From: a virus
Lineage: Duplodnaviria > Heunggongvirae > Uroviricota > Caudoviricetes
IMG/VR virus record: IMGVR_UViG_2681813205_000010
Length of the DNA: 4,157 nucleotides
Strand: one strand, 5' to 3'
The number at the start of each line of letters is the position of its first letter. Within the stretch, counting starts at the first letter, position 1. A program made the position numbers and the translations under genes. The notes beneath the pieces are model-generated. The model was not told where the DNA came from, searched no databases, and saw only the letters and a program-made list of their open reading frames with translations. Positions 1 through 4,157 of the stretch are shown in pieces.

Positions 1-408
1 CTGGTCACGGCTCACCGCTGCGGTGTAAATATCCTGCTGACCGTTCTCCATAATCAGAAACCAGTTAGCCAGAATCGCGGCGGTCGTTGATTTCGCATTT
101 TTGCGCGGCACTTCGATAAAGGCGCTCGTGTATTTGCGCCGTCCGGTGGCCTTAACCTTAAAGCCGAGGATGCACGCAAAGGCGAACTGCTGCCACGGCT
201 CCAGCTCAATGGGTCTGCCACGCATCGGTCCTTTTACGTGCGGGCACACCCTGGAAAAGGCAATAAACCGCTCCACAACCTCACGATCGAACGTGTAAAG
301 GGGGCTTTTAAGATCCGAAAAGTACCGTTTAACGGCCTGTTTCAGCCGTTTACAGGCCGGAATTTTGCCCGTTTTTACGTCTTCTGCGTACTTATTCCAG
401 GCGGTCAA
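1..408 (-). CDS. terL: Terminase large subunit, N-terminal 136 codons; gene continues beyond the window start
   Basis: My own minus-strand translation of 1..408 gives an open frame ending exactly at base 1: (L)TAWNKYAEDVKTGKIPACKRLKQAVKRYFSDLKS...FIEVPRKNAKSTTAAILANWFLIMENGQQDIYTAAVSRDQ. It contains a deviant Walker-A-like stretch PRKNAKST (about 85..108), as expected near the N-terminus of a terminase ATPase domain. It lies directly downstream of terS. The only in-frame start after the upstream stop (451..453) is TTG at 406..408, preceded by GAGGA 5 nt upstream. Not listed in the ORF track, presumably because it lacks an ATG and runs off the window. Confidence 0.75.
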   Translation of the reverse strand, partial: MTAWNKYAEDVKTGKIPACKRLKQAVKRYFSDLKSPLYTFDREVVERFIAFSRVCPHVKGPMRGRPIELEPWQQFAFACILGFKVKATGRRKYTSAFIEVPRKNAKSTTAAILANWFLIMENGQQDIYTAAVSRDQ

Positions 409-748
409 GCTCGTCCTCTTCTTCTGTTTCCGGTGGATTTTTACGGCGGCTTATCGGGTCAAAACCAAGCAAGGAGGCCATTTTTATCATCACTCTTTCA
501 GCGTCGGATTTCGCGCTTAATGCGGGGTTTCTGCTCTCGCCGCCCTGACTGTTAACAATGCTGAACCCGCGCGCCGCAAGGTCTGCGACGGCTTTGCGGT
601 ATATTGAGTAATTGACGCAATACAGTTCCAGATTGCTCCAGTCGGCGGGGGTCAGGTCTCCCCGTTCCGCAAGCTGCCGCGATTTTTCCCGCCACTGCTT
701 CACGGCGATGTCATCCAGGTAGGCGGGGGCTTTCGGTGGTCTTGCCAT
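392..748 (-). CDS. terS: Terminase small subunit, P27-like family
   Basis: 118-aa ORF (MARPPKAPAYLDDIAVKQWREKSRQLAERGDL...GFDPISRRKNPPETEEEDELDRLE) with the size, N-terminal helical DNA-binding-like region and acidic C-terminal tail typical of P27-family small terminases. It sits immediately upstream of, and overlaps, the terL start. Family assignment is from recognition, not a search. Confidence 0.8.
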   Translation of the reverse strand: MARPPKAPAYLDDIAVKQWREKSRQLAERGDLTPADWSNLELYCVNYSIYRKAVADLAARGFSIVNSQGGESRNPALSAKSDAERVMIKMASLLGFDPISRRKNPPETEEEDELDRLE

Positions 749-870: not shown

Positions 871-1044
871 TCAGCGATTGCGGAAACATTCCATAACCTC
901 GCGGTCACGGTCGGTTAATCGCTTCGCTGTGATGCGTTCTGCGCGTCCTGACGCTTTATCTTTATGCCCTGTTTCCTGTGTCTTCCATGCGTCACGCTGC
1001 CTTATAAGTCCACGGATAAGGCGGTTTTGTTCCCGCTCATTCAT
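871..1044 (-). CDS. Hypothetical small basic protein, 57 aa
   Basis: The distal part of the listed 871..1275 minus ORF begins at an internal ATG (1042..1044) placed 5 nt before the HNH stop, so the two genes overlap by 8 nt (ATGAATGA). It encodes MNEREQNRLIRGLIRQRDAWKTQETGHKDKASGRAERITAKRLTDRDREVMECFRNR, which is highly charged and R/K-rich. The part of that ORF upstream of 1044 overlaps HNH out of frame and looks non-coding. No recognisable family. Confidence 0.4.
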   Translation of the reverse strand: MNEREQNRLIRGLIRQRDAWKTQETGHKDKASGRAERITAKRLTDRDREVMECFRNR

Positions 1045-1477
1045 CAGCGTCATACATCCAGTTATTGCGGTTAGCGGCCCGTTCTTCATCTTCACGAAAT
1101 CCACCTGCGGCACGCTTGCTTTTTGTTGCCGGATCAAGCCATTTCGTTTTCTGGTTATGACACGCCTGACACAATGGCTGATGGTTCCATTCGGGCCAGA
1201 AGAGAACATCATCGCCGCCATCGATGGGGATAATGTGATCCACCACCACGGCGGGCGTATATATCCCCTTCTCAAGGCATCGCACGCATAACGGGTTTTT
1301 ACTCAGATACATGGCGCGGTATTTGTCCCACTGTCTGGAGTACCCACGCGCGCGGCGGTGTCCTCGTCTGGCATCCTCTGCACGCCATGCCGCCCGCCTG
1401 TGCTCCTCACACTTACCGGACTTAACGCGCCTGTTACAGCCTGGTTCTGTACATCGTCTTAATGGTTGCCACGGCAT
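1037..1477 (-). CDS. HNH endonuclease, phage terminase-associated type
   Basis: 146-aa ORF with N-terminal Cys-rich segment (RRCTEPGCNRRVKSGKCEEH) and an HNH motif: DHIIPIDGGDD...WNHQPLCQACHNQKT (His, Asn, His plus a CxxC-His zinc-finger-like end). Located next to terS/terL, as in HK97-like packaging modules. Its start ATG (1475..1477) overlaps the connector stop (TGATG). Confidence 0.85.
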   Translation of the reverse strand: MPWQPLRRCTEPGCNRRVKSGKCEEHRRAAWRAEDARRGHRRARGYSRQWDKYRAMYLSKNPLCVRCLEKGIYTPAVVVDHIIPIDGGDDVLFWPEWNHQPLCQACHNQKTKWLDPATKSKRAAGGFREDEERAANRNNWMYDADE

Positions 1478-1770
1478 CAGTACACCCCCACATCACGGTA
1501 AGCCGTCCAGAGTGCGCCTATCGTCATGGGTACGCGCGTTTTTGCGTTATCCGCGACAATCTGGCGATTTTCATACAGGTGAGCGATAAACATCATGCAG
1601 CCAATCTTTATGGCTGGCGTGAACTCCAGCCCGTCATCAAAGCGCCTGCCTATGTGTATCTGGCACGCCTCAAGCGATGCGGCAATGTATCCGCTGATTA
1701 ACTGGTCTTCATCGTCGCCATCGATGCGGCAATGGAGTTTCACTTCTTCCAGGGTGATAAGTTCTGTCAT
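1477..1770 (-). CDS. gp6-like head-tail connector (adaptor) protein
   Basis: 97-aa ORF whose N-terminus MTELITLEEVKLHCRIDGDDEDQLISGYIAASLEACQ matches the conserved signature of gp6-like head-tail connector proteins (xLITLEEAKxHLRIDxDDEDxLI), with a C-terminal AHLYENR-type segment. ATG 1768..1770 overlaps the stop of the upstream gene (ATGA). Confidence 0.8.
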   Translation of the reverse strand: MTELITLEEVKLHCRIDGDDEDQLISGYIAASLEACQIHIGRRFDDGLEFTPAIKIGCMMFIAHLYENRQIVADNAKTRVPMTIGALWTAYRDVGVY

Positions 1771-2105
1771 TTTTCCGCGCCCTCACGACAAAGAATTTCA
1801 AGGCGTGTCCTGGCGGCATCTGGCAGCGGTTGCCCGATGATATTCAGTACACGCCCCGCCAGCGGCCCCGTATTGACCTTTATCCGACTGGTGGCGTTGA
1901 TGTCCTTCCGGTAGCGTATCCATATCCTTACAGTTCCAGTCGCCAGCTCTGCACCTGATGAAATGGCCTCCTTGCTGCTGATCATGTTCACGCTTGCCCA
2001 GAGTGTGTGACCGTCCAGCCACGTTTCGAGTATTTCACCCGTCATGGCTCTGGTCTGTTTCAGGGTCTGAATCGTTACCCTGTCACGCAGTCGCCCTATG
2101 TTCAT
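1767..2105 (-). CDS. Head closure / head-tail joining protein (SPP1 gp16-like)
   Basis: 112 aa from the internal ATG at 2103..2105: MNIGRLRDRVTIQTLKQTRAMTGEILETW...GTVRIWIRYRKDINATSRIKVNTGPLAGRVLNIIGQP. The N-terminal xxGRLRxRVTIQ and the central RIRYR-type motif are typical of this family. The listed ORF extends to 2147, but that extension overlaps the portal 3' end out of frame; ATG 2105 overlaps the portal stop (ATGA) and has GAGGGAG upstream. Confidence 0.75.
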   Translation of the reverse strand: MNIGRLRDRVTIQTLKQTRAMTGEILETWLDGHTLWASVNMISSKEAISSGAELATGTVRIWIRYRKDINATSRIKVNTGPLAGRVLNIIGQPLPDAARTRLEILCREGAEK

Positions 2106-3313
2106 TCCGGTTTTTCTCCCTCGCTGATTTTTACTTCCTGTTTCCATGCCTGGCTGAACTCATCACCACCATCACGCGGTGACAGTCCTTCACGTTCGCG
2201 GGCTTCGTTCGGACACATAACGCCGGATTTGATGCCGCGCTCATAGGTGGCAAAGCGTTCGCCAGGTGTGGCCCGTAACAGGTCCGCGCTGTCAAACTCC
2301 ACCTGATACCGGATACCAGGTACAGGCGAGGCCACCAGCAGGGCGTTTTTTATCTGCTGCTCAAAGTTCGCCAGCCACGGGCGCATCGTCATGGTGAGAA
2401 ATGCGCGGCTTGCCTCGCTGAAATTGCTGTAGGTGCTGTTGCTGTATTCCTGCAAAAAAATCGGCGAGACGTTGAACATTCTGGCGATGTCTTCAATGGT
2501 GAAGCGACGGGAGGCCAGCCATTCAGCATCCTGATTACTCATGCCCAGCTGCTGATAGCTCATACCCCCTTCAAGGATGGGCGTTTTTCCGGCGTTTCTG
2601 GCCCCTTTGTAGCGTTCCAGTGCGGCTAATGCCTGTTTGCCCTTCACGCCGTCCAGCCATTCGCCTGACGTGATAACCCCTGCCGCCATCATGCCATCAC
2701 GCATCACGCTCGCGCCGTGGCGTTGTTGGGCCAGCCCAAGCCCCAGCGATTCGCGGCAGATGGTTACAGGTGAGCGCCCCATAAAACCGTCATCCGTGGA
2801 GTAACGAAGGTGGAGAACCTCCCACGGTAAATAGTTGCGGGTGTTTCCGGTGTAAGCGTCAGTGATGCAGTAGCGCCAGTTGTGTTCTCCTGTCTGCTCC
2901 ATGTTCACCGACTGCGGCGGGTAAGGATGCAAAGCCGCCGGAAAACCATCACGCCCCCACTGAATCACCGCGTAAGCATTACCGTTTAACAGGCAGTGGC
3001 GGATCATCATTCGCTTAAACTGGTAGGGAGTCTGCCACGCGTTCGGGCGCTCGTTGAGGATGTGATCGACCGGATGAGAATCAAGCCACTCGCGGGCCTC
3101 CTTCCCCTTCTCATTGCGTACCAGGTACAGGTAACACGGCATGGTAGCCACCGCCTCAGAGATGACCGTCACGGCGTTCATGACGGCGGGCAGTGATTCC
3201 GCTGTCCCCGATGATACGTACTCACCCGCCCCCGTGTTCGATGTGCCAGCCAGCGCCATAAACTCATCAAGCGTCATGCTGCGCTGCTCTTTTTTTCTTC
3301 TGAAAGGCCACAT
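2102..3313 (-). CDS. Portal protein, HK97 family
   Basis: 403-aa ORF of the size and composition expected for HK97-type portal proteins, placed between the prohead protease and head-completion genes. A GGGGGTG Shine-Dalgarno-like element lies about 7 nt upstream of ATG 3311..3313. Family assignment is by recognition of the overall sequence, not a search. Confidence 0.85.
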   Translation of the reverse strand: MWPFRRKKEQRSMTLDEFMALAGTSNTGAGEYVSSGTAESLPAVMNAVTVISEAVATMPCYLYLVRNEKGKEAREWLDSHPVDHILNERPNAWQTPYQFKRMMIRHCLLNGNAYAVIQWGRDGFPAALHPYPPQSVNMEQTGEHNWRYCITDAYTGNTRNYLPWEVLHLRYSTDDGFMGRSPVTICRESLGLGLAQQRHGASVMRDGMMAAGVITSGEWLDGVKGKQALAALERYKGARNAGKTPILEGGMSYQQLGMSNQDAEWLASRRFTIEDIARMFNVSPIFLQEYSNSTYSNFSEASRAFLTMTMRPWLANFEQQIKNALLVASPVPGIRYQVEFDSADLLRATPGERFATYERGIKSGVMCPNEAREREGLSPRDGGDEFSQAWKQEVKISEGEKPE

Positions 3314-3314
3314 A

Positions 3315-3887
3315 TCACACCCCCGCTAAATCCGCCCACCAGCGGCGATTATCCGCACGCGGCATTTTTTCGGGGTGCTGCTCGTACAGGGAGCGGCGGG
3401 CCAGCTCCACGCCGGAATCAGGGTAAGCCGGTACGGATGTGACGGTAATTTCGTACAGTTCCGCAACCAGCACGGTGCGCACGCATGGATCTGTTGTGGT
3501 ATCCCATACATCCTTACGGGAACGAAAGCCAAAGCTCATGCCGGATATATCACCACGCTTAACCAGTTCGATAACGTCGCGCCCTGTACTGGTATCCGGT
3601 GGGGTCAGTTCAAAGCGTAACCCTGTTTCATCCTCTTCCAGTTTCAGCGTGCCGGAACGGGTGCGCCCCAGTAACATACTGTGGTCATGCTCATACAGGC
3701 CGCGAACGTCATTACCCGCCGCAAGCCATTCAGTAAACGCCCCCCGCTGGAATTTTTCGTAAAACTCACCCCATAACAGTTCTGAAAGCTTATCCCAGCG
3801 AACAACGTAGCCTGTAAGCGTGTTGCTGCCGCTGGTGGTGATTTCCGATGACCGGATTTCCATACTCTTCATAATTTTTTCACCCAT
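3315..3887 (-). CDS. Prohead maturation protease, HK97 family (peptidase S78)
   Basis: 190-aa ORF with a characteristic prohead protease core: GAFTEWLAAGNDVRGLYEHDHSMLLGRTRSGTLKLEEDETGLRFEL...RGDISGMSFGFRS, which includes candidate catalytic His and Ser contexts. The start is ambiguous between ATG 3887, 3872 and 3863 (MGEKIMKSMEIR); none has a strong Shine-Dalgarno. The stop is 1 nt before the portal start. Confidence 0.85.
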   Translation of the reverse strand: MGEKIMKSMEIRSSEITTSGSNTLTGYVVRWDKLSELLWGEFYEKFQRGAFTEWLAAGNDVRGLYEHDHSMLLGRTRSGTLKLEEDETGLRFELTPPDTSTGRDVIELVKRGDISGMSFGFRSRKDVWDTTTDPCVRTVLVAELYEITVTSVPAYPDSGVELARRSLYEQHPEKMPRADNRRWWADLAGV

Positions 3888-3896
3888 AAAACACTA

Positions 3897-3916
3897 AAGG
3901 GGCTTTTAAGCCCCTT
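3897..3916 (-). terminator. Intrinsic terminator-like hairpin between the upstream gene and the protease gene
   Basis: On the minus-strand RNA: AAGGGGCU-UAAA-AGCCCCUU (8-bp stem, 4-nt loop) followed at once by UAGUGUUUU, then the protease AUG. It sits in the 37-nt gap between the stop at 3927..3929 and the ATG at 3887. The plus-strand version lacks a comparable U tract. Confidence 0.45.
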
Positions 3917-3926
3917 CTGTATGCTG

Positions 3927-4157
3927 TTAATCGTCGTCCTGTGGCAGTTCCAGAATCTTGATCGCGTTCGAATCCACCACGCCACCGCCTAAATATTTCT
4001 GCGTGAAAATTTTGAGGAAGCGCGGCTCTGTGAGCATGTCCGGTCTGGTGCGAACACCTGTTTGGTGAGCAACAATACAGTAACCGCGTTTGCAGTCACC
4101 CAGGGCAATATGGTTAACCGGCATAAACGCCAGATATTTGACCGTGAGGCCCAGCAA
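3927..4157 (-). CDS. C-terminal fragment of an upstream gene (5' end outside the window); possibly the major capsid protein
   Basis: Open frame running off the right edge and ending at TAA 3927..3929 (…GYCIVAHQTGVRTRPDMLTEPRFLKIFTQKYLGGGVVDSNAIKILELPQDDD). The leading M in the ORF track is a window-edge artefact, since the first codon is TTG. It is followed by a terminator-like hairpin, as is common after highly expressed capsid genes. Capsid identity is inferred from position only; I do not recognise the sequence. Confidence 0.45.
   Translation of the reverse strand: MLGLTVKYLAFMPVNHIALGDCKRGYCIVAHQTGVRTRPDMLTEPRFLKIFTQKYLGGGVVDSNAIKILELPQDDD

Follow-up and report, generated by a model that had tools for sequence, protein, structure and literature searches.

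The window, by which is meant the whole 4,157-nt stretch of DNA that was analysed, is on the evidence of its sequence part of an EcCIEDL933-type capsid-forming PICI (cf-PICI) of E. coli. It differs from a locus of E. coli JB2 (L001) at 20 of 4157 bases, and an 858-nt piece of it, spanning the start of the portal gene, the protease gene and the 3' end of the capsid gene, was recovered from 361 of 5426 complete E. coli genomes, in every case from the chromosome. All sizeable genes are read from the minus strand, which is the coding strand throughout, and their order as assigned with Pfam (capsid, protease, portal, head connectors, hnh, terS, terL; Table 1) matches that described for proteobacterial cf-PICIs (10.1101/2022.09.08.507074). 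The first gene of the operon had been put down as possibly a capsid gene, and does indeed encode an HK97-type major capsid protein, since the fragment within the window matches PF05065 with an E value of 2e-4 and its full-length 385-aa homologue in L001, named a 'phage major capsid protein' in RefSeq, does so with an E value of 1.5e-61. The small ORF that precedes the gap before terS has no Pfam match.

In L001 and in a second locus (L002, from the O157:H7 strain ATCC 43894) the packaging genes terminate an island of about 15 kb with host genes on both sides, and upstream of them the island carries an integrase, an HTH regulator, an Icd-like protein, a replication gene (a RepA-family helicase in L001 and a DUF927 protein in L002), an SSB and a PerC-family regulator. 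Tail and lysis genes are absent from the island as inspected in these two near-identical loci. For EcCIEDL933 it has been established by experiment that induction and transfer depend on a helper phage, which supplies the tails (10.1101/2022.09.08.507074). The nine genes of the operon are tightly packed, with just two non-coding gaps of 15 nt or more, one at the capsid-protease junction and one before terS; the remaining genes abut or overlap, except for a gap of 13 nt before the last small ORF.

Table 1. Genes and RNA features of the window, in the direction of transcription
Feature	Position	Strand	Remarks
HK97-type major capsid gene, 3' end	3927..4157	-	stop TAA 3929-3927; first operon gene; ORF exceeds window edge
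Hairpin GAAGGGGCU-UAAA-AGCCCCUUU	3896..3917	-	9 bp, 4-nt loop, -13.8 kcal/mol
Interrupted U-rich tail UUUAGUGUUUU	3888..3898	-	read from sequence
Shine-Dalgarno GGGUGA of protease gene	3880..3885	-	7 nt before ATG 3872; read from sequence
S78 prohead serine protease gene	3315..3872	-	PF04586, E 4e-48; RefSeq-style start ATG 3887
Portal gene	2102..3313	-	PF04860, E 4e-90; 1 nt past protease stop
Head closure / head completion gene	1767..2105	-	PF05521, E 2e-22; overlaps portal stop; start as annotated in L001
gp6-like head-tail connector gene	1477..1770	-	PF05135, E 5e-12
HNH endonuclease gene	1037..1477	-	PF01844, E 1e-8
Small 60-aa ORF	871..1053	-	hypothetical protein in relatives; between HNH gene and cos/terS gap
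Small terminase gene, P27 family	392..748	-	PF05119, E 1e-23
Large terminase gene, 5' part	1..408	-	PF03354, E 4e-6; annotation of relative

The hairpin and the start of the protease gene

As the original prediction had it, a terminator-like hairpin oriented with transcription separates the capsid gene from the genes for protease and portal. It lies on the minus strand, the strand of all the genes, begins 9 nt past the capsid TAA in non-coding sequence, and is confirmed as a real structure, with its 5' arm at 3917-3909, the loop at 3908-3905 and the 3' arm at 3904-3896. The GC-rich stem and its U-rich tail are thus present where they had been placed, but the stem is of nine pairs and not eight, and the U tract is interrupted. 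Five of the nine are G+C pairs (four G-C and one C-G), the others being three A-U or U-A pairs and one G.U, and an all-G+C core, GGGGC/GCCCC, is formed between 3914-3910 and 3903-3899. The tail reads UUU AGUG UUUU (3898-3888), its first three U being able to pair with the upstream GAA, and the sequence that follows the stem, AGUGUUUU, extends up to an AUG at 3887. Five U fall within the first 8 nt, and the resulting tail score of 4.1 is reached by 1.3% of random positions in related loci.

Folding energies bear the structure out. The 22-nt hairpin folds at -13.8 kcal/mol with a z score of -2.6, the 39-nt intergenic stretch at -17.3 kcal/mol with a z score of -4.7 (none of 200 shuffles folds as well), and in a context of 81 nt the z score is -2.7. 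A scan of the window with a loose pattern returned six terminator-like sites against 4.5 expected, a number which on its own is not beyond chance, and the hairpin is the strongest of the six. With a score of the d'Aubenton-Carafa type, which takes the hairpin energy per nucleotide together with a weighted U tail and counts d>0 as positive, it reaches d = +18 and is the sole positive site on the sense strand in 4157 nt, a value that provides a rough ranking only, as modern folding energies were put into a formula of 1990. The usual distance of 7-9 nt from the stem would put the RNA 3' ends at about 3892-3887. An Rfam 15 search of the whole window on both strands, at E values up to 1, produced zero covariance-model matches.

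The U tract had also been thought to overlap a ribosome-binding region of the protease gene that lacked a strong Shine-Dalgarno sequence. This rests on ATG 3887 as the start and does not hold for the conserved start, ATG 3872, which has its GGGUGA downstream of the U tract. Relatives carry GGAG (in most of them) or AGGAG at the position of GGGUGA, and their protease begins MK..(F)EIR with a methionine homologous to that of ATG 3872. The upstream ATG is replaced by ACA in L033, and in the L036 type (7 loci), in L062 and in L107 an A-run of different length between the two ATGs puts the upstream one out of frame, leaving ATG 3872 as the sole start codon that is in frame across all variants. The RefSeq start is therefore probably placed 15 nt too far upstream, the true start being ATG 3872. 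With that start and its GGGUGA at 3885-3880, the U-rich tail would come to lie just upstream of the Shine-Dalgarno, stopping 2 nt short of it and leaving it uncovered.

The junction in relatives and in distant phages

Relatives were drawn from a one-genome-per-species set, which supplied Shigella and two Haemophilus with 56% capsid identity, and from two scans of viral contigs of 80 loci each, one made with the E. coli capsid as the query and the other with a Haemophilus capsid. A scan with the protease protein alone returned mostly distant Firmicutes phages without a capsid gene upstream of the protease, and was useful only for L003-L005. The 165 loci with the capsid-then-protease order reduce to 71 distinct junctions from Enterobacteriaceae and Pasteurellaceae, at capsid identities of 56-100%.

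A lack of conservation had been named beforehand as counting against the hairpin; in the event a hairpin of -5 kcal/mol or better stands a few nucleotides past the capsid stop at 66 of the 71 junctions, and 57 of the 71 score as intrinsic terminators (d>0). In 39 of the 71 representative loci no site anywhere in the locus scores higher than that at the junction. The operon background in the same representatives, from the capsid gene to the downstream genes, amounts to 15 other positive sites in 262 kb, or 0.057 per kb, so that about 0.003 would be expected per junction of some 55 nt where 0.80 is observed, a positional enrichment of roughly 250-fold. Since the position of the hairpin is kept in relatives at this rate, chance is untenable as its origin.

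The loops vary freely in sequence and in length, from 3 to 17 nt (UUAAAA, UAAAAA, UUCG, ACAGC, GAAAA, GAAA, AAUUAA and GUGAUA are examples among others), while the arms are still complementary. GGGGC/GCCCC are the commonest arms among relatives. A long-stem class has 11 bp, GGGCGTTCCTG/CAGGAGCGCTC (in RNA letters GGGCGUUCCUG/CAGGAGCGCUC), and L094 has GGGTG/CACCC (GGGUG/CACCC). The stem of L004 and L112, CAAGCGGTA/TACCGCTTG followed by U7 (also written CAAGCGGUA.../...UACCGCUUG), is unrelated in sequence, as is that of L114. Processing by RNase III was considered and rejected, as the stems, which measure 5-11 bp in almost every copy and reach some 15 bp at most in L004 and L112, are too short for it; typical RNase III substrates are longer than the stems found at these junctions.

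The tail is directional, with U-tail scores that average 4.6 on the sense side but 3.1 on the antisense side, random positions giving 2.1, a comparison in which the stem boundaries had been picked so as to maximise the sense-side score. U tracts range from U3 to U8 in relatives, and every Pasteurellaceae junction retrieved has U5-U8. A covariance model built from eight real copies (alignment A5) recovered the junction sites and also aligned the antisense of the same palindromes, with the sense orientation scoring higher at nearly every site; the alignment so obtained (A6) was excluded from the covariation statistics. A MAFFT alignment of 60 hairpins was anchored on the 3' arm, with the 5' arms out of register, and was unfit for counting pairs. 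Within the GGGGC/GCCCC class, covariation was looked for with RNAalifold in 15 short-stem copies of equal length, where 0 of 7 pairs had changed on both sides and the covariation term was -0.26. The case for a selected structure is made instead by invariant arms beside free loops, by the variable spacing of the arms, by replacement stems of unrelated sequence and by position, which together suggest that selection acts on the shape of the hairpin.

At four junctions (L090, L096, L097 and L111) the hairpin is absent. In the first three the capsid stop is directly followed by a Shine-Dalgarno sequence and an ATG, and L111 is similar; across the four, Shine-Dalgarno and protease ATG fall within 5-21 nt of the capsid stop. 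These loci would make ready-made natural controls. In L108 the hairpin is degraded, and in L105 it has a poor U tract. Because some junctions lack the hairpin or hold a degraded one, the element is dispensable, and in some lineages the hairpin may work without termination.

Outside this set the hairpin goes with the capsid gene and not with the protease gene. In the phages SfI, Burkholderia vB_E175 and Vibrio K254, with capsid identities of 26-33%, the protease gene precedes the capsid gene, and in all three a GC-rich hairpin stands 7-27 nt past the capsid stop with the Shine-Dalgarno of the next gene after it, as in the cf-PICI. That of SfI is GGGGCGCGG-AAC-CGCGCCCC, followed by GGGTGA-N7-ATG in a layout identical to that of the window, although its U tract is poor and not clearly recognisable as one. 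Burkholderia vB_E175 has GAAGGGGC...GCCCCUUC and then U7, and Vibrio K254 has CGGGGCC...GGCCCCG and then U5. The order in these phages is portal, protease, capsid, hairpin and head-tail genes, which leaves only neck and tail genes downstream of the hairpin, whereas the cf-PICI, with its capsid gene in first place, has protease, portal and terminase on the far side. No post-capsid hairpin is present in the four phages of Gram-positive hosts that were sampled (of Streptococcus, Agathobacter and Streptomyces, and one from human faeces).

Candidate functions of the hairpin

The best explanation, and a probable one, is that in this EcCIEDL933-type cf-PICI the 3' end of the capsid gene carries a weak (leaky) Rho-independent terminator, made up of the hairpin and its U-rich tail. 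RNA polymerase would arrive from upstream of the capsid gene, and a fraction of it would halt about 7-9 nt past the stem to yield a capsid-only mRNA, the 3' hairpin of which would also shield it against 3' exonucleases. The remaining polymerase would read through into the packed protease, portal, head-closure, connector, HNH, terS and terL genes. The outcome would be more message for the capsid protein than for protease, portal, connector and terminase, which are needed in far fewer copies; by arithmetic, and not as a measurement made here, a shell of T≥4 has at least 235 capsid subunits against 12 portal subunits. In the packaging module of EcCIEDL933 all single mutants abolish transfer except that of one hypothetical gene, in which transfer is severely affected (10.1101/2022.09.08.507074), and from the hairpin to the downstream genes the sense strand showed no sigma-70-like promoter. 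Since every downstream gene is needed and no such promoter follows, the hairpin, if it terminates, must be leaky or be overridden, and the partial terminator of the original prediction is to that extent a reasonable reading. The interrupted U tract and a score (d = 18) below those of the other four terminator-like sites of the island fit a weak terminator. A search of the accessible cf-PICI literature for terminators, promoters and RNA-seq met with no mention of the site and with no transcript 3' ends or coverage for the hairpin; with Rfam equally silent, the site appears to be undescribed for cf-PICIs.

The hairpin is, as far as its sequence tells, an ordinary example of a known device of phage gene control that is new to this element. 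T7-like phages (LUZ100, and T7 itself with Tphi, which is placed after gene 10, the capsid gene) resemble the cf-PICI in having a stem-loop terminator directly after the capsid gene, so that later virion genes need read-through. Such a terminator directly after the major capsid gene is described for T7-like phages (PMC10134795), T7 uses inefficient terminators as a means of balancing expression (PMC9163698), and the arrangement is believed to raise the capsid message (PMC10134795, PMC9163698). These phages differ in encoding a single-subunit RNA polymerase of their own and in giving the capsid gene its own phage promoter, whereas the cf-PICI presumably uses the host polymerase and has the capsid gene first in an operon that also holds protease, portal and terminase. 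In phiX174 weak intrinsic terminators (T_J, T_F, T_G and T_H) likewise follow structural genes, the major capsid gene F included, and step transcript abundance down along a polycistronic unit, with T_J, T_F and T_G blocking only 20-40% of passing transcription (10.1101/2020.03.05.979765); phiX174, one of the Microviridae, belongs to another virus realm and has several terminators in series where the operon of the window has one internal site. With generic Rho-independent terminators of E. coli the hairpin shares a GC-rich stem of 5-9 bp, a 4-nt loop and sequence that is A-rich before and U-rich after the stem, and it departs from them in its interrupted U tract and in lying inside an operon and not at its end.

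The cf-PICIs build their own capsids, and in proteobacteria have the capsid gene as the first of the packaging operon. The simplest means of obtaining capsid subunits in large numbers and those of portal, protease and terminase in small ones from a single promoter would be a leaky terminator after that gene. The principle being known from T7-like phages and phiX174, this would extend a known idea to a new element and adds no new mechanism. The site offers a compact and testable control point with natural variants that have no hairpin, a long stem or a strong U tract, and may be of relevance to the engineering of cf-PICI satellites as DNA-delivery particles.

Other functions can be argued from the same features. 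Differential stability of operon segments by way of 3' hairpins is established bacterial biology, and the hairpin could be mainly a stabiliser of mRNA 3' ends or a processing barrier with near-complete read-through, which after a downstream endonucleolytic cleavage would block 3'-to-5' exonucleases and let the capsid segment outlive the rest. The interrupted U tract of the E. coli form, the strong hairpins with hardly any U tract in L105 and phage SfI, and the invariant arms of the short-stem class, as would be expected of a stability element, all point this way. However, most relatives keep a U run right after the stem (U5-U8 in Pasteurellaceae), which a pure exonuclease barrier would not need, and stabilisation as the main role is rather unlikely; nor are the two functions exclusive, as a terminated transcript ends in the same protective hairpin. 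That the hairpin controls translation of the protease, by occluding the ribosome-binding site or with the U-rich stretch as a ribosome standby site, is very improbable. The closeness of the tail to GGGUGA would suit such control, and the U tract can form a weak alternative helix with the sequence surrounding ATG 3872, but the stable stem leaves out both the Shine-Dalgarno and the start codon, the distance from hairpin to Shine-Dalgarno varies, most relatives have a strong and free GGAG, and the hairpin also follows capsid genes that have no protease gene next to them. Hardest to credit is the view that the palindrome arose by chance, or is bound as DNA by a dimeric protein, and has no role in RNA at all. 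The sequence is a near-perfect DNA palindrome, and the loose scan gives similar numbers of terminator-like sites for the window and for shuffled sequence; against this stand the positional enrichment across 71 distinct junctions and the directional U tail, and the spacing of 3-17 nt between arms, some of them unrelated in sequence, ill fits the fixed half-site spacing of a protein site.

A further possibility concerns the region ahead of the capsid gene, outside the window, where L001 has four further terminator-like hairpins on the sense strand just upstream of that gene, at 14419, 14065, 13947 and 13822 (the series spanning 13793-14419 on the minus strand). The last of them, GTCCTGGAGTTCCTTACTTAACCCCAGGAC followed by T7 (a U7 tail), abuts the capsid ATG and holds the capsid AGGA in its 3' arm, and direct repeats, GTTGTTC-N3-GTTGTTC, lie further upstream of the series. 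The series is conserved in the EcCIEDL933 group, the same stem with a different loop is present in L107, and other relatives lack it. The capsid leader yielded no consensus sigma-70 promoter, and a blastn comparison of the leader with phage records, in which a lambdoid late-promoter/qut region was sought, gave zero matches. The post-capsid hairpin might on this basis be one of several terminator locks in an antiterminated operon, silencing it when uninduced and having little effect on gene ratios once, after induction, an island or helper-phage factor allows polymerase past every lock. The four extra hairpins with the last abutting the capsid ATG, the recurrence of its stem in L107 and the leader without a consensus promoter would be in keeping with this, yet the multi-hairpin leader is peculiar to the EcCIEDL933 group. 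Elsewhere among enterobacterial relatives there is no more than one upstream terminator, and among Pasteurellaceae relatives none within 450 nt, and both groups keep the post-capsid hairpin. Nor is a borrowed lambdoid late-promoter/qut region visible in a leader that has no DNA similarity to phage records, and no antiterminator was identified. Such a lock is distinctly unlikely, and as doubtful is the wider proposal that the cf-PICI head and packaging operon is switched on by processive antitermination and not by simple promoter activation, with an island or helper factor overriding all five hairpins. Were antitermination nonetheless at work, the post-capsid hairpin would be a silencing lock before induction and a stabiliser of the mRNA afterwards.

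A probable cos region, a cluster of differences and an unexpected annotation

Of the 20 differences from the JB2 locus, 17 are packed into the 131 bases from 4016 to 4146, in the 3' region of the capsid gene near the right edge of the window. Nearly all of them are transversions, and an amino acid is altered in 12 of the 14 affected codons, several of the changes (F to C, Y to C, D to A, E to Q, N to M, G to R) falling at residues that are invariant in an alignment (A1) of the E. coli capsid with two Haemophilus capsids. The best match over this segment among all fetched loci still differs at 17 of the 17 positions. The cluster has the look of a damaged copy, or of errors in the sequence close to the end of a contig, and not of normal divergence.

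The other non-coding gap of the operon, the 122 nt before terS (749-870), contains GGCGGGGGGGGGGGCGGTTTCAGGAC, with a run of G11 at 844-854 on the minus strand and a further point of note at about 834; L001 and L002 carry GGGGTGGGGGG in the place of GGCGGGGGGGGGGGCGGTTTCAGGAC. A linear record of 16.5 kb, the cf-PICI-like 'Escherichia phage vB_KppS-Ant' (L193, LR881103.1), terminates exactly after the homologous TTTCAGGAC, and the gap is probably the cos cleavage region of the island. Straight after terL the same record has a gene of 2.3 kb (1747-4044) annotated as 'tail length tape measure protein', an unexpected annotation in a cf-PICI-like element, as cf-PICIs are said to be without tail genes.
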